The notes under the pieces were generated by a model. That model did not search any database, had not been told where the DNA came from, and saw nothing but the letters and a program-made list of their open reading frames with translations. A DNA stretch of 40,169 nucleotides from the NCBI GenBank assembly GCA_964535275.1, contig CAZHSX010000002.1:1-40169 (forward strand). The letters run 5' to 3'. The translations under genes and the position numbers were made by a program. Of the stretch, positions 2,409 to 27,329 are shown piece after piece. This stretch comes from an uncultured Candidatus Saccharimonadales bacterium (GTDB taxonomy: Bacteria > Patescibacteriota > Saccharimonadia > UBA4664 > CAZHSX01). Position 1 is the first letter of the stretch. Each line of letters opens with the position of its first letter.

Positions 2409-2941
2409 TCTTCCTGCTGTTGGCGCAGTTTTTCGATTCGCTCTTCTAGCTCGTGAATGCGCAACCGGCTACGAGTAGTTAATTCGTCGACCTTTTTTAA
2501 AATATCGCGCAACTGCGCTTCCTTGCTTTTGCGGGCGGTGATATCCGGCTCAATGCCAATGTAGTAGGCCACTTCGCCGTCTTCGCCCAGCACCGGAGTC
2601 ACGCGTAATTCCTGCCAGTATTCTTGGCCGTCTTTACGAATATTTTTAACTTCGCCGGCCCAGGGAAGTTTATCGTTACTAATCGTCTGCCACATTTGTT
2701 TATAAAATTCCTCGGGCATTTGCCCGCCCCACAAATCACCTGGGTTGTGCCCTAATACTTCATCGGGCGAAAACCCGGTTTGGCGCTGAACGGCTTTGTT
2801 GGCGTATACTACATTGCCATTGGGATCGGTAATAACTATATGGTCGGGCAACAGATCAAAAAAGTAACCAATTAGAGTCAGGGCTGCTTGCCAGTCACGA
2901 ATATCGGTTTCGGAAATGTGAACGCGATGAGATTTTGCCAT
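2405..2941 (-). CDS. PAS-domain protein with a C-terminal coiled coil and no output domain
   Basis: PAS-like core (IVITDPNGNVVYANKAVQRQTGFSPDEVLGHNP ... YIGIEPDITARK) followed by a heptad-like charged tail. 178 aa. Confidence 0.75.
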   Translation of the reverse strand: MAKSHRVHISETDIRDWQAALTLIGYFFDLLPDHIVITDPNGNVVYANKAVQRQTGFSPDEVLGHNPGDLWGGQMPEEFYKQMWQTISNDKLPWAGEVKNIRKDGQEYWQELRVTPVLGEDGEVAYYIGIEPDITARKSKEAQLRDILKKVDELTTRSRLRIHELEERIEKLRQQQEE

Positions 2942-2970
2942 GGCTTTAGTATACTGCTAAATCCCCGGCC

Positions 2971-3372
2971 TTAACCTTCGGCTGATTCAGCCGCCTCGGC
3001 GTCGGCCTTGGTGACATGTACGGCGCCGTTGGGATGATTGGCAGGTGAATAGATGGAATAAACTTTGAGTTCGCCAGCGCCGGTGTTAATGATGTTGTGC
3101 CAAGTGCCGGCTGGTACAATAACGGCCCAATTATCCTCGACTTGGTGGGTTTCGTTTAGGTCTTCCCGACTTGGGCCGGCTTCGACGCGAGCGGTGCCTT
3201 GCTCAAAGCGCAAAAACTGATCAACCTCCGGATGCACCTCCAGGCCAATGTCCTCGCCTGGTTTTATCGACATCACCGTCAGCTGGCTATGTTTGCCGGT
3301 CCATAAAACCGTCCGAAAATTTGTGTTGTTGACGGTTTTGTCTTCAATATTTTCAGCCCAAATTAATCCCAT
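2971..3372 (-). CDS. Cupin-domain protein
   Basis: Cupin motifs (GLEVHPEVDQFL ... PAGTWHNIIN). AGGAGG SD upstream. Confidence 0.75.
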   Translation of the reverse strand: MGLIWAENIEDKTVNNTNFRTVLWTGKHSQLTVMSIKPGEDIGLEVHPEVDQFLRFEQGTARVEAGPSREDLNETHQVEDNWAVIVPAGTWHNIINTGAGELKVYSIYSPANHPNGAVHVTKADAEAAESAEG

Positions 3373-3395
3373 TCTTCCTCCTGTTTAAGGCTTTT

Positions 3396-3470
3396 TGGCT
3401 CCGGGGGCGAGATTCGAACTCGCGACCAATTGATTAACAGTCAACTGCTCTACCGCTGAGCTACCCCGGA
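3396..3470 (-). tRNA. tRNA-Asn (anticodon GTT), CCA encoded
   Basis: Revcomp folds as a cloverleaf. Acceptor TCCGGGG/CCCCGGA, D-arm GCTC-AGCGGTA-GAGC, anticodon arm GTTGA-CTGTTAA-TCAAT, T-arm GCGAG-TTCGAAT-CTCGC, then GCCA. 75 nt. Confidence 0.93.
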
Positions 3471-3544
3471 TTACTAATACTCCGAGATTATACCAATTTT
3501 ACTGGTAGGAGTGGAGTATAATTGCTGCATAGGAGGAAATGATT

Positions 3545-3832
3545 ATGCCGGCGAAAAAATCTCATAACCCGGAGATAGAGTTTAAGGCCAACTTCGGTGA
3601 TTCCCAAGAATGGAAAAAGTGGATGAAAGAACGCAAAGGAATGTCAGGCTCAAAATCTCATCATGGCTCGGCCGGGGCGCTCTACTTTGTCGGTTTCATC
3701 GGCTCAATCATATATTGGTGGCAGGCGGCCAATAACTTTGGCGCCGTTGTGACCGGCTTGCTGAAGTCGATGGTTTGGCCGGCTTATGTAGTTTACCACC
3801 TTCTGGCGATGTTCTTTGGCTCGGCGCACTAA
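3545..3832 (+). CDS. Small two-TM membrane protein, hypothetical
   Basis: The ORF track starts at 3539. The second ATG (3545) sits 7 nt after AGGAGGA (3531-3537), which is better spacing. A TATAAT lies at 3517-3522. C-terminal hydrophobic helices. Confidence 0.6.
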   Translation: MPAKKSHNPEIEFKANFGDSQEWKKWMKERKGMSGSKSHHGSAGALYFVGFIGSIIYWWQAANNFGAVVTGLLKSMVWPAYVVYHLLAMFFGSAH

Positions 3833-3842
3833 CTAGCACATT

Positions 3843-4121
3843 ATGCGCAAAGCCAGAACCGAACTTTCAACTGGCCATGGGGTGGTCCACCCAATCCCCG
3901 GCGATTTGCGCCGGGCTCTGACCGCCAGTCCGGATGCGCGGGCGGCTTGGGAAGACATTACGCCGCTCGCCCGCAACGAATGGATTTGCTGGACTATTTC
4001 GGTCAAACAGCAAAAAACTCGGGACGAGCACGTCAAGCGAGTAGTTAGCGAGCTAATTGAAGGCAAGCGCCGGCCGTGTTGTTGGGCCGGCTGTCTGCAT
4101 CGTTTGAAAGGTAGGAGTTAG
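3843..4121 (+). CDS. YdeI/OmpD-associated-family-like small protein
   Basis: DLRRAL..P.ARAAWEDITPLARNEWICW...QKTRDEH and a C-terminal RRPCCWAGCLHR motif resemble that family as I recall it. Confidence 0.55.
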   Translation: MRKARTELSTGHGVVHPIPGDLRRALTASPDARAAWEDITPLARNEWICWTISVKQQKTRDEHVKRVVSELIEGKRRPCCWAGCLHRLKGRS

Positions 4122-8119: not shown

Positions 8120-8746
8120 CTAATATTTCCTAATCACGCCGATGACCACGCCTTGGATCTGGATATCAGAATGCTTGGGAACGATGATTGGGTCCATAGT
8201 ACTGTTGGCCGGCTGCAGACGGATGTGATCTTTTTCTTTGTAATAGCGCTTCAGCGTCGCTTCCCCGCCATTAATCAGCGCCACTACCACTTCCCCGTTT
8301 GACGGCACTTCTTTTTCTTGAATTACCACGTAGTCGCCGTCCATGATGGCGTCTTCGATCATGCTTTCGCCCTTGACCTGCAGCACATAGGAGTGCCGAC
8401 GGCCGACCATGAAAGGCGGTACTTCTAAGGTTTCGGCATGACCTTCCATGGTTTGAATCGGCTGGCCGGCGGCGATTAGGCCCAGGACCGGCAGACCCAC
8501 GGACCGGTCTTCGTCATAGTCGACGTTTTTAGGTTTGACCAAGGTTATCGAGCGGGCGGCGTTGTCATGCTTTTCCAGCAAACCCTTTTCCACCAAGGTT
8601 TCAATGTGTTCGGCAATGGTAGCAACGGAGCCGAGTTTAAATGCTTCGGCAATTTCGCGGTAGCTAGGGGCGTAGCCGTGTAGCTCGATGAATTCGGAGA
8701 TGTAGTCGAGTACTTCTTTTTGGCGTTTGGTTAATGGTCGGGCCAT
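8120..8746 (-). CDS. lexA: LexA repressor (S24 autopeptidase)
   Basis: N-terminal winged-HTH (LTKRQKEVLDYI...GYAPSYREIA), Ala-Gly cleavage site (LIAAGQPI), catalytic Ser (GESM) and Lys (TLKRYY). Confidence 0.95.
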   Translation of the reverse strand: MARPLTKRQKEVLDYISEFIELHGYAPSYREIAEAFKLGSVATIAEHIETLVEKGLLEKHDNAARSITLVKPKNVDYDEDRSVGLPVLGLIAAGQPIQTMEGHAETLEVPPFMVGRRHSYVLQVKGESMIEDAIMDGDYVVIQEKEVPSNGEVVVALINGGEATLKRYYKEKDHIRLQPANSTMDPIIVPKHSDIQIQGVVIGVIRKY

Positions 8747-8774
8747 AGGTCACCTCTAATTTAACTTTAAATCC

Positions 8775-8803
8775 AATGTACCGAACAAAGTCCGAAGTGT
8801 CAA
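8775..8803 (-). promoter_or_regulatory. lexA promoter with embedded Cheo-type half-sites
   Basis: Minus strand reads TTGACA (8798-8803), 17 nt, TACATT (8775-8780), then a GAGGTGA SD. CCGAACAAA (8781-8789) and TTTGTTCGG (8809-8817) flank the -35 box. Confidence 0.6.
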
Positions 8804-8823
8804 GGGTTTTTGTTCGGCTTGAG

Positions 8824-9083
8824 CCCCCGCCCAGTCATAACATTTACATTTGGCCGGTAAGATTTTAGGTCAGGGCGAGGCGCACGGAGCGAGCATATTG
8901 GTGTATATGTGAGCGACGTGCAACGAAGCCCTGGGGTAAAAGATACCGGCCCGGAGGGAACACCCAGTCTACGGCATCTCGGCGTTGCTCCTCACTCACG
9001 ATATCCCGTATCGCTCGTTCGTTGCGCCTTGAGCTACCGCAAGCTGGATGTTCCAAATTGTAAATTTATGGCCGGGTGGGGGC
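8824..9083. other. Rod-like imperfect palindromic element of about 260 nt. Candidate structured ncRNA or MITE.
   Basis: Terminal arms of about 30 nt (8824-8853 and 9054-9083) are complementary. Internal co-linear complementary blocks are 8878-8884/9023-9029, 8887-8892/9011-9016, 8905-8913/8995-9004, 8920-8925/8983-8988 and 8931-8935/8963-8967. Confidence 0.5.
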
Positions 9084-10843
9084 TATGGCGTATCGACGTG
9101 GGTAAAGTCGAGGCTGGATTTGTAGTGTGTGGTCACCGGATCACTGGCGGTAACGTTACCAGCCAAATCCAAAATGTCGCGGTAAAAAATCGTGGTGGAC
9201 GGCTTGGTAACGTCGTTACTACCGTCAATAAAGAAGGGTCCGCGGATGCGGGCGGATTTAGTTTTGGTGCCGTAAAAATCAAACTTCAGCGTCGTACCCT
9301 GAATGACAGTCTGGATCAAAATGTAGCTGCCGGTGTCATTGCGAAATTGAAAATCCACGCCGGGGTTATAAACGGTGGCATCCACACCCGGTACTCCAAA
9401 CGGCGAGGTGTAAAACCCGACGGCGTAGGCGTGGCTGGTACGCTGGACAATCGGCAAGCCGGCCAGCAGAGCCGCCCGGTAGGCGGTGGATGACACCTGG
9501 CAAATGCCGCCGCCAAAAATCGGCTCGATCTTATCCCCCACAATTGACAACCCCGGCGCCCAACCGTGTTCGGCATCGACGTTAATAAAGTACTGATTGA
9601 ACGAAAACGTTTCGCCGGGTTTGACCAGCACGCCGTTGTACAGCGCCGCCCCCAGGCGAATGTTATTAATCCGCGCCGCCGCCGAACCCGGGAAATAAGT
9701 TACGCCTTCGCCGATTAATTCCTTAATGCCGAGATTGTTTAGGCTTTCTTCGCTAACATCCGGCTTGAGCGGCTGCAAGTTAACGGCCGCCTGACGCTGA
9801 CCGAGCGGCTGGGTAAGGGCGGCGTTAATGGCTACCACGGCGCCGGCTTGATCCAGCTTGGTGCCGGTGCGGCTGGGCTTAAACACGGTGGCTTTGTCGT
9901 CTTGAATCGTCAGCTGGGCATTCTGGGCTGATTGGTCAACGGACTGGGCCAGGGCGGCCACATAAGCGGTAATTTTGGTTTGATCAAGCTCCACCGTGAC
10001 CCCGCCGGCGTCGTAGAAACGGGTTAGATCAAAGGGGTTGGCAACGGTTGAGCGCTGATGGCCGCGAACATTGAGCCAGCTAATAATGGTGCCGGGATCA
10101 ATGGTCTTTTCGAAACCCTGACCCTTAAGTGTCACCGGCCCCTGTAAGTAAGCATCGGCCTGATGCTTGGCCTGGTCCAGCCCGGCCCCGTCAACTTGCG
10201 GCGCCAAATCATAGACCGGCGCGGTGATTGGATCGTCGCTGGCTTGGCTCAAACGCTCGTTAATAAGTAATGTTAACTGGCCGATGTCCAGCCGCCGACC
10301 GGTTTGCCCGGGCACCACGTGGGCGCCGTCGTCGAGGAATTTGAGGCTGGCGTTAACTGCCGGCTGGGTAACGTCATCGGTAATTTGGGCCAGATACGGC
10401 GTTAACTTAGCATCGTCGTAGGTAAACGAAGCGAAGGTGCTGGGCCGGCCCATAACCGACCGCAGGCGCTGGAGCAATTGCGACAGCAGCGAACCGCGCC
10501 GGCCGAAAGTTAGGGCTGCATCCACTGCCCGCCCGGCGTCATATTTTAGGTTAATTTGCTCGGTGGGAATGCGCAGGGTGCTGCTGCCGTAATTGATCGT
10601 CAAGATCGCCACCCGATAATCTTTGAGCTGATCGTTGGCAGTTTGAATAGCGGCATCCCGACCCAAACCCCCCACGTAGGCACCATCAACGCTGACGCCC
10701 GGAAAGGCCTTGCCGGCGTAAACCAAGCTAAAGCCGACGGCAAACAAGCCGGTTAAGGCGGCCAGAGAAAACACGGCGATGCCAAACTTCTGACCGCGCG
10801 TGCGGCTGGGCTCCGGTTTGACTGGAATTGGAGTTTTTGCCAT
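9083..10843 (-). CDS. VanW-domain protein with an N-terminal membrane anchor
   Basis: TM at FGIAVFSLAALTGLFAVGF. C-terminal VanW-like region (KPGETFSFNQYF ... GGGICQVSSTAYRAALLAGLPIVQRTSH). 586 aa. Confidence 0.8.
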   Translation of the reverse strand: MAKTPIPVKPEPSRTRGQKFGIAVFSLAALTGLFAVGFSLVYAGKAFPGVSVDGAYVGGLGRDAAIQTANDQLKDYRVAILTINYGSSTLRIPTEQINLKYDAGRAVDAALTFGRRGSLLSQLLQRLRSVMGRPSTFASFTYDDAKLTPYLAQITDDVTQPAVNASLKFLDDGAHVVPGQTGRRLDIGQLTLLINERLSQASDDPITAPVYDLAPQVDGAGLDQAKHQADAYLQGPVTLKGQGFEKTIDPGTIISWLNVRGHQRSTVANPFDLTRFYDAGGVTVELDQTKITAYVAALAQSVDQSAQNAQLTIQDDKATVFKPSRTGTKLDQAGAVVAINAALTQPLGQRQAAVNLQPLKPDVSEESLNNLGIKELIGEGVTYFPGSAAARINNIRLGAALYNGVLVKPGETFSFNQYFINVDAEHGWAPGLSIVGDKIEPIFGGGICQVSSTAYRAALLAGLPIVQRTSHAYAVGFYTSPFGVPGVDATVYNPGVDFQFRNDTGSYILIQTVIQGTTLKFDFYGTKTKSARIRGPFFIDGSNDVTKPSTTIFYRDILDLAGNVTASDPVTTHYKSSLDFTHVDTP

Positions 10844-11803: not shown

Positions 11804-13234
11804 TCAGCCCATTGAGGCTGCGCTGGGCGCAGATGCCAAGGTTCCGCCAAGGGATTCCCAGGCACTCCAAGCTCCCGAAGCAAACCTTCGATGAGAAAGA
11901 CCGTTGCTGACATTCTCTACGAAGATGTCCATTACTCCGGACTGCGGAGAGGTGGCGCCAGGTGCAGAGGCTAGTGATCCACCAAGTGACTCCCAAAGCC
12001 CCCAGACATTATCGTAACGGACATGTTCAAGCGAGCCGTCGGTAGCTTCAGCAAAGACATCAAGCACATTGGCTTGAATGCTAACGGCTGCCGGCGCAGA
12101 TGCTAGTGTTCCACCTAGGGATTCCCAGGCCGACCACGAGCCAGAAGCAAAACGCCGGTGCGACAGCCCATTACTACCGTTCTTGACGAAAACGTCCATG
12201 ACCCCAGCTGCCGGGGATGTGACCGAGGGCGCCGACGTCAGAGTGCCGCCCAACGACTCCCAAGAACCCCAGCCGCTATCGTACCTCACATGCTCAAGCG
12301 AACCATCACTGGCTTCGGCGAAAACATCCAATACATTTGCCTGGATGCTGATCGCGGCCGGAGCTGAGGCTAAGGTGCCACCAAGTGATTCCCACGCGGA
12401 CCAAGCCCCTGAGGCAAAGCGACGGTGGGAGAGGCCGTTGCTGGCATTTTCGACAAAAACATCGAGTACGCCGGCTGCAGGTGAAATCACTGCCGGACTA
12501 GACGCTAAGGTGCCACCCAGTGATTCCCATGATCCCCAGCCGTTGTCGTAACGAACGTGTTCGAGAGTGCTGTCGCTGGCTTCTGCAAAAACGTCGAGCG
12601 TCGTGTTGAGCGAAGAACTAGACGTCGTCGGGGTATTAGCCAGGGAATGCACCACGCCGCGTATCGGCAGAGTAACATCGGAACGTGATAGCGTAGTGCC
12701 GGACAGTGTGTACGTTGCCAGATGAGCGGTCCCACTGCCACTGACCATATAGTTCTGTTCAACTGCGTAAACCGTTGCGCCCTCGATTCTATCTACAACC
12801 GAGACGTGGCCGTCAGGAGAACCCGAGGTATGGTTATGCACAATCATGTCACCCGGCACAATTCGCAACGCCGGACTGCCGTTGGGATAAGCCACCATCC
12901 CCATGAAGGGTGCTCCGTCGTAAATCTGATAGGCAGAGGCAGCCGGTGTATTGGGGGATTGGATGAAGCGTCCGTTGTTCTGAGTATACCAACCGCGGGT
13001 GTAATACAGCCTTTGCGGCAATTCGACACACTGCCACGCCGAGCCGACTGGCGTCTGACCACCACATGAAACGGTATCCCAAGTGCCCGACATACTACAG
13101 GCGTTGACACCTTGACCACCCATCCAGTTGGATCCCCAAATTGCCGGCGTCGTATCGGCACGGGCAGATTGCACGCTCACGAGTAAGAGCGCTGACACAA
13201 CAAAAGCAAGCGACCACGGGCGTCGCTGCTGCAT
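11804..13234 (-). CDS. Secreted CHAP-domain peptidoglycan amidase/peptidase fused to a six-blade WxxWESLGG repeat (beta-propeller-like) domain
   Basis: Start moved to ATG 13234, which has a GGGAGG SD 6 nt upstream. The track start at 13279 lacks one. Signal peptide MQQRRPWSLAFVVSALLLVSVQSARA. CHAP Cys (AWQCVELPQ) and His (DGHVSVVD). Six repeats of 44-45 aa. Confidence 0.8.
   Translation of the reverse strand: MQQRRPWSLAFVVSALLLVSVQSARADTTPAIWGSNWMGGQGVNACSMSGTWDTVSCGGQTPVGSAWQCVELPQRLYYTRGWYTQNNGRFIQSPNTPAASAYQIYDGAPFMGMVAYPNGSPALRIVPGDMIVHNHTSGSPDGHVSVVDRIEGATVYAVEQNYMVSGSGTAHLATYTLSGTTLSRSDVTLPIRGVVHSLANTPTTSSSSLNTTLDVFAEASDSTLEHVRYDNGWGSWESLGGTLASSPAVISPAAGVLDVFVENASNGLSHRRFASGAWSAWESLGGTLASAPAAISIQANVLDVFAEASDGSLEHVRYDSGWGSWESLGGTLTSAPSVTSPAAGVMDVFVKNGSNGLSHRRFASGSWSAWESLGGTLASAPAAVSIQANVLDVFAEATDGSLEHVRYDNVWGLWESLGGSLASAPGATSPQSGVMDIFVENVSNGLSHRRFASGAWSAWESLGGTLASAPSAASMG
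11816..12604 (-). repeat. Intragenic tandem repeat: three copies of an 89-aa (267-nt) super-unit, each built of two blades
   Basis: Blades begin at LDVF/MDVF/MDIF with 44/45-aa spacing. Alternating A (LDVFAEASD.SLEHVRYD.GWGSWESLGG) and B (DVFVEN.SNGLSHRRFASG.WSAWESLGG) types. Confidence 0.85.
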
Positions 13235-13382
13235 ACTTACCTCCCTTGTCGAAGGGCATTCGGCGATTTGCCGAACCAACCAATATTAGCACTAAAAAAT
13301 GTACAACTGATTAAACAGGTTACGTTTGTGGTATCAGTGTTATAATATGAAGGTCTAGGGGGTCAAACAAAAGGCAAAAGTC

Positions 13383-13926: not shown

Positions 13927-16281
13927 ATGAATAAGACCACAAAAAAATTAATCAAAGTTTTGCTGCCGCTGCTAATTGCCGGAGCGGCTCTAACCTTGGG
14001 CCCAGGCCACGCCCGTGCTGCTTTTGATCCTGGGCGCATTATCGATGACAGTCTTTTTACCAACGGGTCTTCAATGAGTGAAGCCAATATCCAGGATTGG
14101 TTGGTTTCCAAAAATTCGACTTGTTTAAAAAACGCGACTTCAGCGGAACCGTTTTACGACACCAGCCAACCTAATAACGTAAGGTATGGCGCCGATGTAC
14201 CGGTATCGCGAGTAATTTGGAAAACCGCCCAACAATTCGGAATTAATGCTCAAGTGATTTTAGTAACTTTGCAAAAAGAACAAGGCTTAATTACCCGTAC
14301 CTCCTGCCCTGCCAGCACAACTAGCTGGGCAATGGGCATGGGTTGCCCGGATTCCAGCCCCGGTTGTGATTCTCGCTACGAAGGCTTTTCGCGTCAAGTT
14401 TGGGAAGGAACAAAGCTACTACGAAACTGTTTTTACCAAGACGTCGGCTGGTACTGCGGCTACATTCCCTTTGCTACCAACCGAGTTTACTTCAACCCCA
14501 ATGCCGGTTGCGGTTATAGCGACGTTTATATCTCCAACCGAGCAACGGCCACGTTATACAATTACACGCCCTACCAACCCAACGCTGCCGCCCTGGCAAC
14601 CAGGTATGGAACCGGCGATAGCTGCAGCGCTTATGGCAACCGAAATTTCCATAATTTCTACGAGGACTGGTTTGGTCCACCCGTCGGTGAAAACTGGACT
14701 TGGTTCGTAGACAGTCAGTCAGGCCCAAATGTCGCCGTTCGCTCAGGGCAGCGTGCTGTAGTAACTCTGCGCGCACGCAACTCCGGCACTACAACTTGGA
14801 CCAATGGTGGCGCGAACCCGGTAAAACTCGGGACTGTCGGCCCGCGTGACCGAGCCAGTCAGTTCTGGACAGACGGCTGGTCTGGAAACCCGGGCCTGCC
14901 CAACTCCCGCCCGGCCACTTTGAGGGAGGGCGCCGTTGGCCCCGGGCAGATTGGCACCTTTAGTTTTGAAATCCAAGCTCCATATGTAAGTTCACCAACT
15001 ACCTATACCGAGGCTTTTTCGCTTGTAGCGGAAAATAAAATTTGGCTGAACGATCCGGGCTTCCAACTTAGCATCACAGTCAGCCCGCCGGGCAGTAATA
15101 CCGCCAGCGTCAGCTCGATTAGTTACAATCCCAATATTGAATCTGACCAACCGGGACTAGTCACGGTTAAAATGGTCAATACCGGAGACGATGCCTGGTA
15201 CCGCGGCGGTCAATTCCCGGTTAAAATCGGCACCGCCCAACCCCATGATCACAGCGGCACTTTTTACGACGGCGGTAGCTCTTGGTTTGCCAATAATCGG
15301 GCGGCTTACATCGAGCCCAACTATGTTTTGCCCGGGCAAACTGCCACCTTTAGCTTTTACGCTAAAATGCCACACACCACCGGCCCAGTGTCAGAAACTT
15401 ATGACTTATTAGCGGAGAATTTGATTTGGTTTGGCGACGAATTTACTTTGACCTTCAACGTTCAGCCCAGCTACACGGCAACCCTGGTCAGCCCAGCCAA
15501 CATCACAATGGTGCCTGGTGAGCCAACCACCGCCAGCGTGCAACTGCAAAACACCGGCACGGCTACTTGGGTCAAAACTGGCGCCAACCCGGTTAAACTC
15601 GGCACCCGCTCGCCGTTTGATCACACCAGCCCCATGTGTTTTGCTCCGCCCTGGCCTACCGCTTGGCCTAGTTGTACACGAGCGGCGCTTTCCACCGCCG
15701 CTTCGGTGGCGCCGGGAGCAACCGGCACGTTCCAATTTGACCTTAATACCCCTTATACCGCCAGTGGCACCTACCATGAGGACTTCCAGCTGGTGGCCGA
15801 AAACTTAAAATGGTTCGGCGACATCGCCCCGCTAACGGTTAACTACACCCCTCCCAATCGCACGTGGTCCCAGACTTCGGTCGGCTCTTGGACCGACAGC
15901 TCCAAAACCACTACGGTCGACCTTACCAATCTCACTCCCGGCCAATCGGTTTACGTGGAGGTTAAGGCTACTAACTCCGGCAACGCTACCTGGTACAACA
16001 ATGGACCTTACCCGGTGCGGTTGGGCACTCAAAACCCGCAAGACCGCATTAGTCGCTATGGCAGTTCGTGGAACATTCCCAACTTGCGCGGAACTATGGG
16101 TACTCGGGCTGCCACCGTACAGGAGGCCTCGGTGGCACCCGGCGGCACGGGCACTTTCGCCTTCACTTTGACCGTTCCTGGCGGCACCGGCACCTTTGAC
16201 GAGTACTTCAACTTGGTGGCCGAGGGTCTAGCTTGGTTCGATGGCTCACCGCCGCTCATCTTCCACACCGTCGTTCACTAA
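13927..16281 (+). CDS. Secreted 784-aa protein with an N-terminal conserved domain (ILVTLQKEQGL motif) and four Ig-like modules of about 125 aa
   Basis: Signal peptide ending ARA-AF. Four modules share N(S/T)G..(T/A)W ... NPVKLGT ... PG..GTF.F ... LVAEN..WF. Confidence 0.65.
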   Translation: MNKTTKKLIKVLLPLLIAGAALTLGPGHARAAFDPGRIIDDSLFTNGSSMSEANIQDWLVSKNSTCLKNATSAEPFYDTSQPNNVRYGADVPVSRVIWKTAQQFGINAQVILVTLQKEQGLITRTSCPASTTSWAMGMGCPDSSPGCDSRYEGFSRQVWEGTKLLRNCFYQDVGWYCGYIPFATNRVYFNPNAGCGYSDVYISNRATATLYNYTPYQPNAAALATRYGTGDSCSAYGNRNFHNFYEDWFGPPVGENWTWFVDSQSGPNVAVRSGQRAVVTLRARNSGTTTWTNGGANPVKLGTVGPRDRASQFWTDGWSGNPGLPNSRPATLREGAVGPGQIGTFSFEIQAPYVSSPTTYTEAFSLVAENKIWLNDPGFQLSITVSPPGSNTASVSSISYNPNIESDQPGLVTVKMVNTGDDAWYRGGQFPVKIGTAQPHDHSGTFYDGGSSWFANNRAAYIEPNYVLPGQTATFSFYAKMPHTTGPVSETYDLLAENLIWFGDEFTLTFNVQPSYTATLVSPANITMVPGEPTTASVQLQNTGTATWVKTGANPVKLGTRSPFDHTSPMCFAPPWPTAWPSCTRAALSTAASVAPGATGTFQFDLNTPYTASGTYHEDFQLVAENLKWFGDIAPLTVNYTPPNRTWSQTSVGSWTDSSKTTTVDLTNLTPGQSVYVEVKATNSGNATWYNNGPYPVRLGTQNPQDRISRYGSSWNIPNLRGTMGTRAATVQEASVAPGGTGTFAFTLTVPGGTGTFDEYFNLVAEGLAWFDGSPPLIFHTVVH

Positions 16282-16336: not shown

Positions 16337-17455
16337 TTGAATAAAACCCTGAAAGTCCTAACCATTTTCGGCACTCGACCGGAAGCCATTAAGCTGGCTC
16401 CGGTTATTCAGGCTTTGGAAAAACATCACATTACCGACCAAGTAGTGTGCGTGACCGGCCAGCACCGGGAAATGTTAGATCAAATGCTGAGCCTGTTTGC
16501 CATTAAGCCCGATCACGACTTGCGCGTAATGACCGAGTCGCAAAGCCTGGAGCAAATCAGTTCGCGGGTGCTGCTGGGCCTGGAAGATGTGCTGGAGCAA
16601 ACAAAGCCCGATTTGGTACTGGTGGAGGGTGACACCACTACAGTATTAATGGGTGCACTGGCAGCCTTTTACAAAAAAATCCCGGTTGGTCACATCGAAG
16701 CCGGCCTGCGTACCGATAACAAATACAACCCATTCCCCGAAGAAATGAACCGGCGGTTGACGGCCCAACTGGCCGACTTGCATTTTGCCCCCACCCAGCA
16801 GGCCAAGCAGAATTTGCTGGCCGAAGGGGTTAAGCCCGACAAGATTTTTGTGACCGGCAACACTGTGATTGATGCCCTGCTGTGGGTGCTGGAGCAAAAA
16901 CGGCCTTTTGAAAGTCAGGCTTTAAAAGCGCTAAAAACTGAAGGTCGCCGCGTGATTTTGGTTACCACACATCGGCGCGAAAACCTGGGTGAGGGCATGG
17001 AGGCAATCTTTAGCGCCATTAAGCGTTTGGCCGGCGAATTTAGCGACCTGCTGTTTGTGTTCCCCGTTCACCTCAACCCGGCGATTCAAAAGCACGCGAC
17101 TGACACGTTTAAAGACGTGGCCAACGTGGTGCTGACGGAGCCGCTGGGTTATTCGGACCTGGCCAAAGTTATGCAAATGTCCTACTTGGTTATGACCGAT
17201 TCCGGCGGCATTCAAGAAGAAGCCCCGGCGCTGGGGAAGCCGGTGCTGGTACTGCGCGACACCACCGAACGGCCGGAGGGGGTGGAGGCCGGTACGGCCA
17301 AGCTGGCCGGCACCGCCGCGGACAAAATTTACGAGTACGCTAAAGAGCTGATAACCGACTCGGCGGCATATGAAAAAATGGCCAAGGCCATTAACCCCTA
17401 CGGCGACGGCACCGCCGCCAAGCAAATAGTTGAGATTATTAGCCAAAAAATATGA
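16337..17455 (+). CDS. wecB: UDP-N-acetylglucosamine 2-epimerase (non-hydrolysing)
   Basis: FGTRPEAIKLAP, HIEAGLRT and TDSGGIQEEAP motifs. TTG start. Confidence 0.92.
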   Translation: MNKTLKVLTIFGTRPEAIKLAPVIQALEKHHITDQVVCVTGQHREMLDQMLSLFAIKPDHDLRVMTESQSLEQISSRVLLGLEDVLEQTKPDLVLVEGDTTTVLMGALAAFYKKIPVGHIEAGLRTDNKYNPFPEEMNRRLTAQLADLHFAPTQQAKQNLLAEGVKPDKIFVTGNTVIDALLWVLEQKRPFESQALKALKTEGRRVILVTTHRRENLGEGMEAIFSAIKRLAGEFSDLLFVFPVHLNPAIQKHATDTFKDVANVVLTEPLGYSDLAKVMQMSYLVMTDSGGIQEEAPALGKPVLVLRDTTERPEGVEAGTAKLAGTAADKIYEYAKELITDSAAYEKMAKAINPYGDGTAAKQIVEIISQKI

Positions 17456-18768
17456 TTGCCATTGCCAAAAAATACTTCCAGGGGCTACAGCGGGTTTTTT
17501 TGAATACGCCGGCTGCTCAAGATACTGCCATTATCTATGTCAGCTCGCTCTTTAGTTCGGCGGTTGGGTTTGTGGCTTCCCTGCTGGTTGCCCGCCACCT
17601 AGGTCCGGCCGATTTTGGCATCGTCACAGCTTACAATTCCATTGTCTTAACCTTGACCGGCCTGACCGATTTTGGCTTGGGGGTAGGATTAATCAAATTC
17701 GTCACTCCCCTTTTGCAATCCAGCCTCGAAAAAGCCCGATCGTATCTGCGCTTTGTTTTGTATGCCGAACTTGCCAGCGGGCTAACTGTATTGGTGCTCG
17801 GAACAGTGCTGGCCGGCACCTTGCACAATTTTGTCGGCAGCTCGATTTCCGTCGGTATTATCCGCTTGGCCATAATTTCGGCCGCCGTTACTTCGACCGC
17901 GGCTTTCAACGGCGCGGTTCTAAATGCCTATAAACGCTTTAAACTTAATGCCGCGCTTAATACCGGTGCCAGTTTGCTGCGATTTTTGTACATCCTGTTT
18001 TTGCTCAAAATCCTTGGCTTAAGTATTAGTAATATTATTATCGGCTCGGTTGGCATCGCCGTTTTGGCCGCGGTAGTGGGCTTTATCGTCATCCCTAAAG
18101 ATTTTTTCGGCGAGGTGAAACGGGGAGAGCTAAAAATCGCCGGCAAAGCCGTGCTGGGGTTTAGCGGCTGGCTAACAATAAGCTATGTTTTGACCGCCGT
18201 CAGCGGCCGGCTGGATTTCTTTTACCTCTACCGCCTCCGCGGCGCCACCCAGGCTGGTATTTACGGCGCGGCTATTCAGTTGTCGCTGGCATTTAGCTTA
18301 CTGGTGGGGGCGATCAGTACAGTGATGACTCCCTACATCAGCGAAAAAATTACGCTGGAGCAAAAACGGTTGTTTTTGAAAAAGACCCTGGCCCTGTCTG
18401 CCTTCGGAGCCTTACTTTTCCTAGCTTCTATGTTCATTATGCCGACGGTAATTAGCCTGCTTTTCGGTGCCAAATATTTAGGTGCCATTGTCCCGCTGAA
18501 AATTCTGATTGTTCATTTTGCCCTTAACGTCTTCCTGATTCCGATTACTCTCATGTATATTCCCTTTGGGCAGGTCAAAGTGGGCACCCTTGTATCAGCC
18601 TTGCAGCTGGTGGTAGCCCTGATTCTCTACCCTATTCTGATTAGACATTTTGGGGCCGCCGGGGCGGCCGGTACAGTATTAAGCGGCACAATAATCGGCT
18701 TGCTGGTTTACCCAACTGTTTTACGCTGGCTAATGCATAATGAAGCTAAGAAAATGGAGGCAGTATGA
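17452..18768 (+). CDS. Polysaccharide/oligosaccharide flippase (Wzx-like, MOP superfamily)
   Basis: 438 aa with about 12-14 TM helices. Position and ATGA start/stop overlap with wecB. Confidence 0.7.
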   Translation: MIAIAKKYFQGLQRVFLNTPAAQDTAIIYVSSLFSSAVGFVASLLVARHLGPADFGIVTAYNSIVLTLTGLTDFGLGVGLIKFVTPLLQSSLEKARSYLRFVLYAELASGLTVLVLGTVLAGTLHNFVGSSISVGIIRLAIISAAVTSTAAFNGAVLNAYKRFKLNAALNTGASLLRFLYILFLLKILGLSISNIIIGSVGIAVLAAVVGFIVIPKDFFGEVKRGELKIAGKAVLGFSGWLTISYVLTAVSGRLDFFYLYRLRGATQAGIYGAAIQLSLAFSLLVGAISTVMTPYISEKITLEQKRLFLKKTLALSAFGALLFLASMFIMPTVISLLFGAKYLGAIVPLKILIVHFALNVFLIPITLMYIPFGQVKVGTLVSALQLVVALILYPILIRHFGAAGAAGTVLSGTIIGLLVYPTVLRWLMHNEAKKMEAV

Positions 18769-19421
18769 GCGAAAAATTTCACAATGTGCTGGCTTGGAGT
18801 GAAGAAGAAAAACAACTGATTGGCATTCAAGAAAAGTTTTTACAATACTTCCCGCCGGCTGGAGAAATTCTGGACTTGGGTTGCGGCCGCGGGATTTTCC
18901 TGGACTTGCTGGCCAAGCATGGTTTTAAGCCTGCCGGGGTGGAAATCGACGAACAAATGCTCAAAGCCAGCCGCGATCGCGGATTTGAGGTAGAGCATAC
19001 CGACGCAATTAGTTTTTTAAAAGCCACTAAACGAACGTTTGATGGCATCTTTGCCAGCCACATTGTCGAACACATGAGCGCCGCCGAACTGACAGAGCTG
19101 GTTGATCTTATAAAACAGCGGCTCAAGCCGGGTGGAGTAGCCATTGTGGTCACACCGCGACCAGGTAGTTTATGGGCAACCGAGTACTTTTGGCTTGATA
19201 CAACGCATGTGCGCCCGGTGCCTTACGAGCTGTTAAAGCAGCTGTTTGCACCGCTGCAGACCATTGCCGGTGGTATCGAACCGGATTCGGTACCGGTTAA
19301 AGACGCTGGACCCCTGCTGCGACTAATCCTGGCCGTTCGCCGCAAATTACTGGGCCGGGAACTGTATGATTTCGTTTACGGTGGCGGGGTTTCCTACATT
19401 GTCGTGAAGAATAATGCTTAA
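18765..19421 (+). CDS. Class I SAM-dependent methyltransferase
   Basis: Motif I ILDLGCGRGIF; IFASHIVEHM; LKPGGVAIV. ATGA overlap with the flippase gene. Confidence 0.8.
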   Translation: MSEKFHNVLAWSEEEKQLIGIQEKFLQYFPPAGEILDLGCGRGIFLDLLAKHGFKPAGVEIDEQMLKASRDRGFEVEHTDAISFLKATKRTFDGIFASHIVEHMSAAELTELVDLIKQRLKPGGVAIVVTPRPGSLWATEYFWLDTTHVRPVPYELLKQLFAPLQTIAGGIEPDSVPVKDAGPLLRLILAVRRKLLGRELYDFVYGGGVSYIVVKNNA

Positions 19422-20511
19422 AGTCGGCCTCGACGCACGGGCTCTGGGATCTAGCCGCAAAAGCGGGGTGGCTAATTATATTCAACAATTGGCTACCGAC
19501 CTGCCCGGCGCTGCCAATGATATTCGCTTTTATTACTTCCTGGACCGACATACCTCGTTTGGTGAAGCCCGGCGGTACCGGCGCGGGAATGTCAAAATTA
19601 TTTGGTTGCCAACTCGGAGCGAGAAAAGCTTTATGCGTTGGGTGAGTAAGTTAGCAAAATTTTACCGTCTGGATTTGTGCCAATTCCCCAGCGGCATGAT
19701 CCCGGACGGTTTTAAGGGTAAGGCCATTATCAATATTTACGACCTGATATATGAGCGGTTTCCGCAATTTTATTCGCCACAATCCCTACAGTTGCAAAAA
19801 ACTAAGGTGCGGGAATCCACTCAGCGGGCCGACGGTATCATTACGATTTCCCAGTCCACCAAAAAAGATCTGCAGGAATTCTACGGTACGGCGGCCGCAA
19901 AAATTGCTGTCATTTATCCGATTGTAACCAAAAACCTTAGTACTAACAGCGCCGAGCGTCCTTGGCCGGAACCATATCTTTTGGCCGTCGGCGAAATTCA
20001 GCCTCGAAAAAATTTTATTAACCTCGTTAAGGCCTTGGCTTTATTGACCGATCTGAAAATTCACCTGTACATCGCTGGCAGTATTCAAGATGAGGCCGAG
20101 CACCAACGCCTGATGGAAGTTATTAAAGCCAAGGGCTTAGAGTCTCGGGTCCATATCGGCGGCTACGTCACCGACGCCCAGCTGCAGGGCTTGTATCAGC
20201 ATGCCGAAATGCTAGTATTCCCCTCTTTTTACGAGGGTTTTGGCATCCCAATTTTGGAAGCCTTCGCGCATGATATTCCGGTGGTTACCGGGCAAGTAGC
20301 CTCAATGCCCGAGGCCGGTGGTGACGCGGCCGTCTACGTGGACTCCAACTCGCCGGAATCAATTAGCACGGGCATTGAAAAAATCTTGGCTGATCCCAAA
20401 CTTAAACAAACCTTGGTCAAACGCGGCCGTGAGCAATTGGCCAGATTCAGCCAAACCAACTTGGCCCAAGAAACTATCGCTTTTTACCGACAAGTGGTGG
20501 GCGCCAAGTGA
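19414..20511 (+). CDS. Glycosyltransferase family 4 (GT-B)
   Basis: PSFYEGFGIPILEAFAHDIPVV (E-x7-E region). Confidence 0.85.
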   Translation: MLKVGLDARALGSSRKSGVANYIQQLATDLPGAANDIRFYYFLDRHTSFGEARRYRRGNVKIIWLPTRSEKSFMRWVSKLAKFYRLDLCQFPSGMIPDGFKGKAIINIYDLIYERFPQFYSPQSLQLQKTKVRESTQRADGIITISQSTKKDLQEFYGTAAAKIAVIYPIVTKNLSTNSAERPWPEPYLLAVGEIQPRKNFINLVKALALLTDLKIHLYIAGSIQDEAEHQRLMEVIKAKGLESRVHIGGYVTDAQLQGLYQHAEMLVFPSFYEGFGIPILEAFAHDIPVVTGQVASMPEAGGDAAVYVDSNSPESISTGIEKILADPKLKQTLVKRGREQLARFSQTNLAQETIAFYRQVVGAK

Positions 20512-21500
20512 AAATTATTTTTGTTGCCCCGTCTTTTTACCCGGCCGCTGGCGGCGTGGAAACGCATTTACGGCACGTGGTAAAAATCCTGACTGGCCGC
20601 GGGCACAAACTGGTAATCCTGGTGCGCTACGCGCCGCAAATTCCCCGCCGCCAAACCGTCGACGGTGCTGTGGTGTTGCGCCTACCCCGCCGGCTTAAAA
20701 CCCTGTGGCTATGGACTCATCGCCGAGAGCTGGCCAGGCCGGATGCCATTCACTTTCACGACTTATACCTGCCGGCTTTAAAAAAGCTATACCCAACCGC
20801 CCGGCTGGTTCAAACTTTCCACGGTTATGAAGGCTTTCCGGTTCAACCCGAGGCTATCAAAGTGCGGCAATGGATTCGCAGCCAAGTGCCGTATTGCATC
20901 GCCGTGGGTGCTTTTATAGAAAAATGGTACGGCACCAAATGCGAGGCCGTAATCTACGGCGGAGTGGAAAATCCGCCCCCGGCCATCGCCAAAATCCAAC
21001 CCGCCTACGCGGCCGTGTTTGTTGGCCGGCTGGAGCCCGACACCGGTTTTAAAACTTACCTTGAAGCCTGGGAACTAATTAACAAACAAGATGCCAAAGC
21101 CAAGTTACTGGTTGTGGGCGATGGATCTTTAAACGGCTGGGCGCAGGATTTTGTGCGCCGGCACCAGTTGCAGGTCGAATTTAAAGGTCGCGTGGACTCG
21201 GTGTGGGAAAGTTTGGCGGCGGGGAAGGTGGCATTTGTTAGCGGTTACTTAGCGATTTTGGAAGCCGGAGTTTTGGGCAAGCCGATTGTGGCCTTTTACG
21301 ACACCCCCATTAAAAAAGACTACCTAGAATGTCATCCGATGGCGGCTAATTTTGCCATTGCCGATTCAGTCGCCGCGATTGCCGCTGCTTATGCCAAACC
21401 GCCAAACTCAAGCCAGCAAAAAGCCCTCCAGGCCTGGGCCAAACAGCAGACTTGGGATAAAATTGCTAATCTATACGAGCAAGCTTATGGCAAAATCTGA
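20508..21500 (+). CDS. Glycosyltransferase, GT4-like (GT-B)
   Basis: N-terminal KIIFVAPSFYPAAGGVETH. The C-terminal sugar-nucleotide domain is degenerate. GTGA overlap with the upstream gene. Confidence 0.7.
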   Translation: MKIIFVAPSFYPAAGGVETHLRHVVKILTGRGHKLVILVRYAPQIPRRQTVDGAVVLRLPRRLKTLWLWTHRRELARPDAIHFHDLYLPALKKLYPTARLVQTFHGYEGFPVQPEAIKVRQWIRSQVPYCIAVGAFIEKWYGTKCEAVIYGGVENPPPAIAKIQPAYAAVFVGRLEPDTGFKTYLEAWELINKQDAKAKLLVVGDGSLNGWAQDFVRRHQLQVEFKGRVDSVWESLAAGKVAFVSGYLAILEAGVLGKPIVAFYDTPIKKDYLECHPMAANFAIADSVAAIAAAYAKPPNSSQQKALQAWAKQQTWDKIANLYEQAYGKI

Positions 21501-22239
21501 TTGGCAAAAAATTTGGGCCGAGCAAAACATTGACGTTGCCGCTGATCAAAAGCGGTTGACCGAAGAAAAGCAAACTTTGCGCTGGCAAAAAATGGAGCGC
21601 CTGATCAAGCAGTATCTTGGTGATTTTAAGAATCTAAAAACCATCGAGGTCGGGGCTGGATTGGGAGATTTTTCGATCATTCTTAATGAACTAGGTGCCA
21701 AAACGACTTTGTCGGACTATAGCGAGGAGGCGATTGCCAAAGCCAAGCTACGCTACCAGGCTCACGGTTTGAAGGCCGACTTTGAGATGGCCGATATGTT
21801 AAACGTGCCGGATAAACTCAAAAACAAATTTGATTTAAGTATGTCTTTCGGACTTAATGAGCATTTTTCCGGTGAGGACCGCTACAAAATTACGGCCGCC
21901 CATGCCGAGGTATTGCGCCCTGGCGGTTTAACTTTTATGAGCGTGCCATACAAATATGCCCCCCACTATCAATTCTGGATGCGCCGAAGTATTAAAAAGG
22001 GCGTGTGGCTGTATGGGCTGGAAATTCCATTCTCGCGCACCGAGATCCGACAGCTGGCGGAAAAAGCCGGCTTAAACACTGTGGCCATGTTCCACAGCAG
22101 TTTTTTGGGTGACGTGGCGCGCTTTTTTCCGCTGCCGCGAGCTGTTCGCCGGTTGCTCAATAACCATTTAGAAAAAGCGAACCCGCTTAATCGCTGGGGT
22201 TACGCGTTGGTATATGTCGGACAAAAACCTAAAAGTTAG
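21487..22239 (+). CDS. Class I SAM-dependent methyltransferase
   Basis: Start moved to ATG 21487 (MAKSDWQKIW), giving a 14-nt overlap with the upstream gene. The track start at 21352 runs 149 nt into that gene. Motif I IEVGAGLGDF. Confidence 0.75.
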   Translation: MAKSDWQKIWAEQNIDVAADQKRLTEEKQTLRWQKMERLIKQYLGDFKNLKTIEVGAGLGDFSIILNELGAKTTLSDYSEEAIAKAKLRYQAHGLKADFEMADMLNVPDKLKNKFDLSMSFGLNEHFSGEDRYKITAAHAEVLRPGGLTFMSVPYKYAPHYQFWMRRSIKKGVWLYGLEIPFSRTEIRQLAEKAGLNTVAMFHSSFLGDVARFFPLPRAVRRLLNNHLEKANPLNRWGYALVYVGQKPKS

Positions 22240-23182
22240 CCTTATTACCACCGAGCGCAATGAGCGCGAAGCGATTGCCGAATTTATTGAGTCGGCCATG
22301 GGCCAATCAATGGCGCCGGATGAAATCGTGATTGCCGACGGCGGCAGTACCGACGGCACGGTCGAAATTATTCAGGACTACATTAAAAAGGGGGCCCCGA
22401 TTAAACTGGTGCAAGCCCCCGGCAACCGGGCGGTCGGCCGCAATGCCGCCACCCAGGCTGCCCGCAACGCCATTATTGCCTGCACCGATGTGGGTTCACG
22501 CCTGGATAAAGACTGGCTGAAAAACATTACTAAACCGTTTGCCGACAACCCCAACGCCATGGCCGTAGCCGGTATGTTTGTGCCCGACCCCCAAACTTAT
22601 TTTGAAAAAGTCTCGACCACTTTAATGCTGGCCCCCAATGACAAAATTGATTTGGAAACCTGGCTGCCGTCCAGCCGATCGGTGGCTTACAAAAAGTCGG
22701 CCTGGCAGGCGGCCGGCGGCTACCCCGAGCACACCAACTTTAACGAAGATACGCCGTTCGACTTGGCGCTGAAGGCCAAGGGTTTTAAATTTGAAGACGG
22801 CTTAAAAGCCGTAGTTTACTGGCGACCGCGCTCGAATTTGCGGGAGTTTTACCAACAATACTATTTCTACGCCGTGGGTGACGGATTGGATTTGCTCAAC
22901 CGCCGGTCAATGTTGCTCTTAAGTATCAAATACTTGACAATTGTGGGGTTAACCATCGGCCTAGCTGCTTACCATTCCTGGCTGGCGCTAGTGCCGCTGG
23001 TCTATTTTTTACTGCGGTTGGGTTTGCGCGTACGCCGGGCGGGGCGCAAAATCGGCGGGCTTAAGACTTATTTATTAATGATGGTAGTCGCCGTGACTTT
23101 TGATTGGTCCCAAATTTTAGGCTACTGGTATGGCTATCTCAACCGCGATCGGCTCCGCAACAGCCAGAAGTTAGTGCGATGA
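22214..23182 (+). CDS. Glycosyltransferase family 2 with C-terminal TM helices
   Basis: IVIADGGSTDGT and CTDVGSRLD motifs. Hydrophobic C-terminus. Confidence 0.8.
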   Translation: MSDKNLKVSLITTERNEREAIAEFIESAMGQSMAPDEIVIADGGSTDGTVEIIQDYIKKGAPIKLVQAPGNRAVGRNAATQAARNAIIACTDVGSRLDKDWLKNITKPFADNPNAMAVAGMFVPDPQTYFEKVSTTLMLAPNDKIDLETWLPSSRSVAYKKSAWQAAGGYPEHTNFNEDTPFDLALKAKGFKFEDGLKAVVYWRPRSNLREFYQQYYFYAVGDGLDLLNRRSMLLLSIKYLTIVGLTIGLAAYHSWLALVPLVYFLLRLGLRVRRAGRKIGGLKTYLLMMVVAVTFDWSQILGYWYGYLNRDRLRNSQKLVR

Positions 23183-23913
23183 GAATATCAGTGGTGATTA
23201 TTGCCAAAAATGAAGCCGGTTACATTGAAGACTGCCTGCGTTCGGTGGCTTGGGCCAACGAGCGGCTGGTGATTGATGATGACAGTACCGACCGCACTGC
23301 GGCAATGGCAACTGCACTGGAAGCCCGAGTTTTAAGCCACAAGTTAACTGGCTTTGCCACCCAGAAAAATTTCGGGATTGATCAGGCCAAAAATGATTGG
23401 ATCTTAATTTTGGATGCCGACGAACGGGTGTCGCCAGAGTTGGCCGGCGAGATCCAAGCTCTGCCGGACCAGCCGCCGGCGGCGGCGTACTCGATGCCGT
23501 TTCAAAATTACTTGGGCAAAAAGTGGTTTCATCACGGCGGGTTTTACCCCGATCGGCATCTGCGTCTGTTTGACCGCCGCCAGGCCCGCTACGGCGCCCG
23601 CGAGGTCCACGAAACCCTGGACATTAACGGCCAAACGGCGGGGCTAAACGGGTCGGTTATTCACCTCACCTACCGCGACAGCCGAGAATATTTGGATAAA
23701 GTCAGGCGTTACAGCTTGCGTCAGGCCGAAGAAGACTTTCGGCTGCAAAAACCGGAAATCCGCTTAAACTACGCCTGGACGGTCAAAGAATTTATGACCC
23801 GCTACCTCGTGTTGAGTGGCTGGCGTGACGGCTGGATTGGCCTGGTCAGCGCCGTTTTGATGGGCTATTACCGATACTTGTACATTAAGCGTTTTAAACA
23901 GTTGGCAAAATGA
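23179..23913 (+). CDS. Glycosyltransferase family 2
   Basis: Start moved to ATG 23179, which overlaps the upstream stop as ATGA. ISVVIIAKNEA, VIDDDSTDRT and ILDADERV motifs. Confidence 0.8.
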   Translation: MRISVVIIAKNEAGYIEDCLRSVAWANERLVIDDDSTDRTAAMATALEARVLSHKLTGFATQKNFGIDQAKNDWILILDADERVSPELAGEIQALPDQPPAAAYSMPFQNYLGKKWFHHGGFYPDRHLRLFDRRQARYGAREVHETLDINGQTAGLNGSVIHLTYRDSREYLDKVRRYSLRQAEEDFRLQKPEIRLNYAWTVKEFMTRYLVLSGWRDGWIGLVSAVLMGYYRYLYIKRFKQLAK

Positions 23914-25043
23914 AAATTCTTTTTTTAACCCGCAATAATTTGGTGCAACTCGGCGGCGGCGACCGGATTCAACTTTATAAAACAAAGGAAGCTTTGGAGC
24001 GGCGCGGCCACACCGTGACGGTAGCGACTAAATTTGTGAAGGACTTGGCGTCTTATGATGTGGTGCATTTATTTAACATGCAGATCAATCCCCACTCGCT
24101 GCTGGTCTACGCACTGTGGGCCAAAAAACAGGGCAAGCCGGTGGCGTTGGCCACGATTTATTGGAACCCCAAAGAATGGCGCGAGAATACGCCGGCCGAA
24201 TTTGTGGCCGAAGCCAAGGGCAAGCGGCAATTATTGCGCTACCCGTTCCCCGGCGTTAACCTCCTGCGGATTATCGGTTTGCTGTTAACCAGCCCGGAAC
24301 TGCGGCAGTGGTTGGGAATTTTCCTCCGGCACCCTGGCGGCGGCGTGGCGTCAGACTATGTGAAGCGCCAGTTAATTAAAACCGTCGACATTATTTTGCC
24401 CAACGGCGTGTCGGAGCAACGCGAAGTTGAGCGGGATTTTGGAACGGCCAAGCGGGCGGTGTTTGTGCCCAATGGGGTGGAGGCCGAGTTTGATGGGGCC
24501 GACCCGGCCGCCTTTGCCGCCAAATATAAATTAACCGATTTTGTGTTATCGGTGGGACGAGTGGAAAGCCGCAAAAACGCCTTGGCGCTGGTTAAGGCCG
24601 CCAAAAAGTTGGACTTGCCTTTGGTGATGATTGGCAACGACCAAGTCGAGCCCGGTTATGGAGCGGCAGTTAAGGCCGCGGCTGGTCCTAAAACCATCTT
24701 TATACCCGAGATGGATCACGACAGCTTGGGTTCGGCTTACGCGGCCGCAAAAGTGCACGCCCTGGCTAGTTGGTTTGAAACCCCCGGGCTGTCCAGCTTG
24801 GAAGCCGCCCTTTGCGGCGCCAACATCGTTACCACCGACCGCGGCACGGTTAAAGAATACTTTGCCGATTTGGTGTGGTATTGCGACCCGAAGGACCAGC
24901 CTTCGATCGAAAAGGCGCTAACGGCCGCCATGCAGGCACCCAAATCCGACAAATTGCGCCAACATTTACTGGCCGACTTTACCTGGGATAAGACCAGCGA
25001 AGTTACCGAGCAGGCTTACCGGCAGATTATGGAGCCTAAATGA
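23910..25043 (+). CDS. Glycosyltransferase, GT4/GT1-like (GT-B)
   Basis: KILFLTRNN...GGGDRIQ N-terminus. SWFETPGLSSLEAALCGANIV. ATGA overlap. Confidence 0.75.
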   Translation: MKILFLTRNNLVQLGGGDRIQLYKTKEALERRGHTVTVATKFVKDLASYDVVHLFNMQINPHSLLVYALWAKKQGKPVALATIYWNPKEWRENTPAEFVAEAKGKRQLLRYPFPGVNLLRIIGLLLTSPELRQWLGIFLRHPGGGVASDYVKRQLIKTVDIILPNGVSEQREVERDFGTAKRAVFVPNGVEAEFDGADPAAFAAKYKLTDFVLSVGRVESRKNALALVKAAKKLDLPLVMIGNDQVEPGYGAAVKAAAGPKTIFIPEMDHDSLGSAYAAAKVHALASWFETPGLSSLEAALCGANIVTTDRGTVKEYFADLVWYCDPKDQPSIEKALTAAMQAPKSDKLRQHLLADFTWDKTSEVTEQAYRQIMEPK

Positions 25044-27323: not shown

Positions 27324-27329
27324 AGCAAA

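Follow-up and report, generated by a model that had tools for sequence, protein, structure and literature searches.

MITEs are defined as non-coding elements of 50-800 bp (PMC11602168), and TIR-like ends, small size, a stable fold and absence of coding sequence make up their published description (PMC10969869; PMC11602168). They are typically AT-rich, and their target-site duplications (TSDs) can decay in old copies (PMC10969869). The named families of bacterial MITEs and intergenic palindromes, such as Correia/NEMIS, ERIC, RUP, QMITE2 and SPRITE, are each confined to certain taxa, and the literature found describes none from Saccharimonadia; a literature search on Saccharibacteria MITEs and on 6S RNA of Patescibacteria turned up nothing relevant.

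The palindromic element described here lies between a vanW-like gene and lexA of an uncultured member of the Saccharimonadia (Patescibacteria; TM7). It is like these families in being shorter than 500 bp, in having TIRs of about 30 nt, in being non-coding, intergenic and located directly 3' of a stop codon, in the very stable stem-loop predicted for its transcript and in its presence or absence at a syntenic site. It is unlike them in that no TSD, second copy, cognate transposase or IS ends were found, in that it has no sequence similarity to the named families and in that it is GC-rich relative to its surroundings (55.5% GC versus 40% in the adjoining native spacer and 52.6% in the contig), whereas MITEs are typically the opposite.

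Foldback elements and REPIN-like inverted doublets come close in another respect: in them, too, two inverted copies of a unit form a long hairpin, and the unit itself contains a palindrome. The units of our element, however, are about 131 nt long as compared to about 20-40 nt for REP, the window encodes no RAYT or Y1 transposase, and a single copy of the element was found in the DNA searched. The Y-shaped fold of the element (see below) furthermore resembles what we take to be the T- or Y-shaped terminal hairpins of parvovirus ITRs and of Streptomyces telomeres, with which it would share a closing stem and two internal palindromes, in both DNA strands. Unlike these, the element is intrachromosomal, between conserved genes and not at the end of a replicon, its arms are much longer, and no replication or nicking protein is associated with it.

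The stretch of DNA analyzed (hereafter the window) is one entire contig of 40,169 nt. Its LexA is alone in its 90% cluster; the closest relatives (at most 83% identity) belong to uncultured Saccharimonadia, Parcubacteria and further Patescibacteria. The contig represents chromosomal DNA, because dnaA, dnaN, yidC and a jag-like gene (KH/R3H) are found at 35-40 kb, because a large glycosyltransferase/Wzy cluster and two-component genes are present as well, and because no transposase, integrase or reverse transcriptase (RVT domain) was found among the window ORFs scanned for domains. The element, which adjoins the promoter of the SOS repressor gene (Table 1), is unusual for a reduced Patescibacteria genome.

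Table 1. Features of the vanW-lexA region, numbered from the first nucleotide of the window
Feature	Position	Strand	Description
vanW-like gene	9083..10843	-	PG_binding_4 and VanW domains; stop codon abuts the palindromic element
lexA	8120..8746	-	LexA_DNA_bind and Peptidase_S24 domains
lexA promoter	8775..8803	-	TTGACA, 17-nt spacer, TACATT; conserved in relatives; contains CTTC-N7-GTTC (8783-8797)
Whole palindromic insertion	8822..9084	no strand	263 nt, 55.5% GC; supported by inverted repeat, fold z-scores, contig-wide outlier rank and absence from syntenic relatives
Left terminal arm	8822..8850	no strand	AGCCCCCGCCCAGTCATAACATTTACATT; pairs with 9055-9084
Right terminal arm	9055..9084	no strand	ends in CT (+ strand), which corresponds to 'AG' in the TAG stop codon of vanW
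Left internal hairpin	8851..8951	no strand	about 34 pairs; self-complementarity z = 13
Right internal hairpin	8957..9054	no strand	diverged inverted copy of the left hairpin; self-complementarity z = 8.4

Arms, halves and predicted folds

A first-pass annotation of the window had pointed to complementary outer arms and to a co-linear complementarity of the interior. Every segment that it listed is present, and both features were recovered, the arms as 8822-8853 and 9053-9084 (32 nt with 75% complementarity in an ungapped comparison, or about 28 pairs when a 1-nt shift is allowed) and the interior as the blocks I4 (8878-8894/9013-9029, 82%) and I5 (8909-8925/8983-8999, 82%). The complementarity of 8851-8951 to 8957-9054 is beyond chance (z = 5.3; none of 300 shuffles was as good). 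The right arm, which had been seen to end at the vanW stop, in fact overlaps two bases of this stop codon (CTA, 9083-9085 on the + strand). No conserved ORF was found: the ORFs within the element are without relatives, and the longest, starting with TTG, encodes only 63 aa. When the open stretches from five of the six frames were joined and compared to 5.8 billion protein clusters, there was no match at E<=1 and not even a self match, which is weak evidence, as gene callers evidently call no ORFs there.

Folding of both strands, a check that had been recommended, yielded energies far beyond those of shuffled sequences, with z = -6.1 for the + strand and z = -7.1 for the - strand (none of 200 shuffles as good); with DNA parameters the z-scores were -4.4 and -5.4. 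Among 606 overlapping 263-nt segments of the contig the element is the strongest GC-corrected folding outlier on both strands (z = -4.3 and -4.2), and comparable long palindromes were found neither elsewhere in the window nor in the loci of the relatives.

The predicted minimum-energy fold is on both strands a Y, in which a closing stem of about 28 bp and two hairpins of about 100 nt each meet in a three-way junction (-124.0 kcal/mol on the + strand, -122.9 on the - strand); for QMITE2 a dG of about -113 has been published (PMC10969869). The element had been drawn as a single rod-like hairpin. Such a rod can indeed form but is not optimal: when only pairs between the left and the right half are allowed, the energy is -121.3 kcal/mol on the + strand and -110.2 on the - strand, 2.7 and 12.7 worse than the best fold, and the rod would thus be a genuine near-optimal alternative on the + strand only. 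The central bubble of 24 x 24 nt in the original drawing did not survive, since its two strands pair locally, in I6 (8863-8876/8928-8941) and I2 (8957-8980/9031-9054).

Both the Y and the rod are possible because the two halves of the element are inverted copies, each with its own palindrome. When 8822-8953 is compared with the reverse complement of 8954-9084, the two align from end to end with 59% identity (78 of 132 positions), the outer 30 nt being better conserved than the interior. The element thus contains a unit of about 131 nt, made up of a 30-nt arm and a 100-nt hairpin, twice in inverted orientation, and the two copies have diverged. A covariance model of the unit matches nothing but these two halves. 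There are 15 hairpin pairs at homologous columns of both copies, and 6 of them have changed on both sides and are still paired, a number reached by 10 of 500 column shuffles (slid controls gave 0-2). This may be a hint that the hairpin structure was maintained between the half-copies, albeit a weak one, because it comes from two sequences only, which also defined the structure.

G-U pairs in the arms had been taken to favor, weakly, a + strand transcript. The argument is sound for the closing stem (-38.1 kcal/mol on the + strand, -33.0 on the - strand) and for the left hairpin (-52.0 as + strand RNA, -41.8 as - strand RNA), but it is reversed in the right hairpin (-47.7 as - strand RNA, -32.9 as + strand RNA) and therefore does not generalize. 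The + strand favors the closing stem by 5 and the left hairpin by 10 kcal/mol, the - strand the right hairpin by 15. With equal totals and conflicting preferences of the domains, the calculated energies contain no net strand signal. In either copy the repeat unit is more stable in the same 'sense', which, with two copies only, is a coin-flip observation.

The vanW-lexA site in relatives

The adjacency of vanW and lexA is conserved in nine relatives (L001, L002, L003, L004, L127, L129, L130, L147 and L148), whose LexA is 73-83% identical to that of the window and whose VanW is locally up to 84% identical. In none of the nine is the element present at this site. From the vanW stop to the ATG of lexA there are 336 nt in the window as compared to 118 nt in L001, 94 nt in L002, L003 and L004, about 107 nt in L127, at most 84 nt in L129 and L130 and 74 nt in L147. 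In eight syntenic relatives, with spacers of 74-118 nt, the site is thus empty, and in L001, L147 and L002 just 4-12 nt separate the vanW stop codon from the -35 hexamer of lexA. Without the 263-nt palindrome the gap in the window would be 73 nt, which is within the range of the relatives. A search of the related loci for arm-like sequences (up to 3 mismatches) found none in a meaningful context.

Read toward lexA, the window contains ...GTCGATACGCCA-TAG, then the palindrome and then CTCAAGCCGAACAAAAACC-CTTGACA..., the lexA promoter beginning 18 nt downstream of the palindrome on the - strand. Since CCGAACAAAAACC-(G)CTTGACA also precedes lexA in L005, this stretch is native. From the short element-free gaps in the relatives it follows, by parsimony, that the element was gained in this lineage; to judge from these comparisons, the insertion is specific to this lineage and separates the vanW stop codon from a conserved, ancestral lexA promoter.

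Other DNA has been gained at the same place. In L148, which has 176 nt here, the same junction of vanW stop and lexA promoter (890-1030) is occupied by about 115 nt of unrelated, AT-rich filler, which ends in a 9-bp hairpin (CCTTTGAGA-tgtaag-TCTCAAAGG) just ahead of the -35 hexamer. In L005, which is from a 1.19-Mb contig, two extra genes are found between vanW and lexA (2783-3870), encoding an AAA_17-like protein of 180 aa and a protein of 144 aa. The filler and the extra genes show that the site tolerates unrelated insertions, and the filler in L148 marks the junction as a place where sequence has been gained repeatedly.

All of the window comes from one MAG contig and from one assembly of the population, which raises the question of a chimeric fold-back generated during assembly. 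Fold-backs that arise as artefacts repeat the neighboring genome sequence almost perfectly in inverted orientation. The two halves of the element have no more than 59% identity and are without a match elsewhere in the contig, and the junctions with the flanks fall exactly at a stop codon and at a conserved promoter. An artefact is therefore very improbable.

The lexA promoter is strongly conserved in L001, L002, L126-L133, L137, L144, L147, L148, L150 and L151. It consists of TTGACA, a direct repeat similar to GTTC-N7-GTTC that fills the spacer, and the -10 hexamer. The direct repeat resembles what we take to be the SOS box of Alphaproteobacteria and not GAAC-N4-GTTC, presumably the SOS box of Gram-positive bacteria; the rest of the window shows no enrichment of the motif. 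On both sides of the -35 hexamer of lexA there is, in the window (8779-8815) and in L005 (about 3895-3935), an inverted repeat, CCGAACAAAAACC ... GG(T)TTTTGTTCGG. Its 15-nt arms are perfect in L005, whereas L001, L002 and L129 lack the repeat, which may be a second, palindromic operator arrangement.

Candidate RNA genes and the predicted vanW-lexA transcript

6S RNA has a size of about 180-200 nt. The proposal in the first-pass annotation that the element could encode a 6S-like RNA can point to a superficial likeness only, namely a long closing stem and an irregularly paired interior, which the element displays when it is forced into the rod. A comparison with Rfam had been suggested as a check. 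When positions 8600-9300 were analyzed with cmscan, none of 4227 Rfam families, the 6S models included, matched at E<=10, and a scan of the whole window at the Rfam gathering thresholds found only a tRNA and nothing at the element. The element belongs to no curated RNA family and specifically is not 6S RNA. Besides failing the covariance models, it lacks an open central bubble in its best fold, is too long with its 263 nt, is not conserved at the vanW-lexA site (absent in nine of nine syntenic relatives) and has no promoter of its own. That it is the 6S RNA (ssrS) of the host bacterium is thus extremely unlikely.

The sole sigma-70-like promoter in 8600-9300 is that of lexA, which lies on the downstream side and is directed away from the element, and the terminator scan found no terminator at the element. 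An intrinsic terminator was also rejected, there being no U tract; the sequence next to the closing stem is CTCAAGCC on the - strand and TATGGCG on the + strand. Since the element starts at the vanW stop, without an intervening terminator and without a sigma-70-like promoter of its own, transcription on the - strand is expected, most likely as the 3' tail of the vanW mRNA. By analogy to other transcribed intergenic palindromes (REP, ERIC, Correia, SPRITE), so stable a structure in the transcript could stabilize or process the upstream vanW message and could reduce read-through into lexA.

It is another matter whether the element is a functional structured RNA that acts in cis on the vanW-lexA transcript or is a lineage-specific small RNA. 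A switch between rod and Y might then control read-through into lexA or processing. Such a function would be in line with the exceptional stability of the fold, with the two nearly iso-energetic conformations of the + strand (-124.0 and -121.3 kcal/mol), with the 6 of 15 common hairpin pairs that are doubly changed and still paired (10 of 500 shuffles reach this) and with the unit folding better in the same 'sense' in both copies. We nevertheless consider it unlikely. The element is absent from all nine syntenic relatives, no search revealed a homologue or an Rfam match, promoter and terminator of its own are lacking, the two strands do not differ in total energy and the preferences of the domains conflict, and the covariation is weak, coming from the same two sequences that yielded the structure. 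With an orphan single copy that lacks comparative support caution is advisable: strong predicted folding plus a 6S-like sketch do not amount to evidence for an RNA gene.

Several other classes of structured DNA or RNA were considered and rejected. A retron msr-msd would call for a reverse transcriptase, and no RVT domain is present in any scanned ORF of the window; a DGR was dismissed for want of an RT and of a template/variable repeat pair. R-box motifs of an integron attC were not seen when the sequence was read by eye. An IS200/IS605 PATE or omega-RNA does not fit, as there was no HEARO match and its hairpins would have to be far shorter. A type I toxin was dismissed because the 63-aa ORF encodes a protein that is rich in arginine instead of being hydrophobic and that is without relatives.

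Origin of the insertion and its genomic surroundings

A search for further copies by BLASTN had been proposed to distinguish a repeated element from a unique one. There is no second copy or fragment within the 40-kb contig, and in about 275 kb of related Saccharimonadia DNA blastn, nhmmer and a half-unit covariance model matched only the two halves used for training. BLAST against collections of phages and plasmids gave chance matches of 21-36 nt only. A degenerate 24-25-nt arm pattern had no exact match in the JGI metagenomes and none in IMG/VR, and a two-block pattern of the interior had none in IMG/VR. The 17-nt arm consensus CCCCCRCCCRGYCATAA, when compared to genome contigs, was too unspecific for 596 Gb and is uninformative on copy number: it gave at least 119 single matches, in unrelated taxa, none being longer than 17-23 nt among the matches listed. 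One match among those listed is in a Saccharibacteria genome (L063); it lies inside an ORF and has no further similarity.

How does the element compare with a MITE? Its 263 bp, its longest ORF of 63 aa, its 32-nt, 75% complementary ends (10-15 bp or more are expected of TIRs) and the empty sites in related genomes are as they should be. A TSD of 2-10 bp was not found. The flanks are CTTGAG and CTATGG (GGCTTG and ATGGCG if AG/CT is included in the element) and have in common at best T[C/A]. The proposed assignment to MITE- or ERIC-type palindromes was therefore borne out with respect to the terminal inverted repeats, the lack of coding capacity and the presence or absence at a syntenic site, but not, in the DNA searched, with respect to copy number, TSD and IS ends. 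A single copy, no TSD and no related IS ends had been named beforehand as findings that speak against a MITE, and all three are found in the accessible data. The MITE-type label nevertheless appears to fit better than 6S RNA and is, on the grounds of anatomy and of the empty sites, the best available; mobility is unproven, because neither a TSD nor a second copy was found. The 6 double substitutions in 15 pairs also speak against a MITE relic in that they hint at a structural constraint, which a dead relic would not need.

In our opinion the best explanation, with about an even chance of being correct, is a lineage-specific palindromic insertion, probably transcribed as the 3' tail of vanW, that would have originated as a non-autonomous foldback or MITE-like mobile DNA. 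If MITE-like, the element would have landed directly upstream of the promoter of the SOS repressor gene, where it could uncouple lexA from read-through from vanW, and it would be one of few cases in which non-autonomous mobile DNA is documented in a reduced Saccharimonadia genome.

A serious rival, although in itself rather unlikely, is that the palindrome arose locally by inverted duplication of about 131 bp, via template switching or fold-back repair, then diverged and was never mobile, being essentially neutral filler in a permissive intergenic site. It would account for the single copy in everything searched, for the missing TSD and for halves that are inverted copies with 59% identity, and unrelated filler (L148) and extra genes (L005) are indeed found at the same site. 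A donor for the unit was, however, found neither nearby nor elsewhere in the contig; the outer 30 nt are better conserved between the halves than the interior, as are TIRs; and the hairpins, which have 6 compensatory pairs, have remained very stable although the halves differ at 41% of positions.

There is, finally, a small chance that the element is the first sighted copy of an undescribed hairpin element of Patescibacteria, either mobile DNA with folded modules of about 131 nt or a bistable RNA module that gates read-through into lexA. In the former case, the hairpin modules would be recognized as folded single strands; in the latter, the change between rod and Y within the vanW-lexA transcript would gate read-through into the SOS repressor gene. 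The sole positive hint is the hairpin shape kept across half-copies with 59% identity (6 compensatory pairs).

The contig that carries the insertion has several features of its own. The jag-like KH/R3H gene, yidC, dnaA and dnaN are found at 35240-39829 in their usual order, and therefore this contig probably includes the region of the chromosomal replication origin, at a distance of about 28 kb to the palindromic element. Upstream of vanW, the - strand encodes at 11804-13279 a 491-aa protein built of DUF346 repeats; in the DNA of this gene a 44-nt core is present in five copies, with spacings of about 133 nt or 267 nt. It is followed on the + strand (13927-16281) by the gene for a 784-aa protein with Ig-like N_BRCA1_IG domains and, after this gene, by a polysaccharide locus of about 19 kb (16337-35236) with genes for UDP-GlcNAc 2-epimerase, a flippase, many GT4 and GT2 glycosyltransferases, methyltransferases, Wzy and GDP-mannose dehydratase. 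A conserved stretch of 41 nt is common to four GT4 paralogues of this locus.
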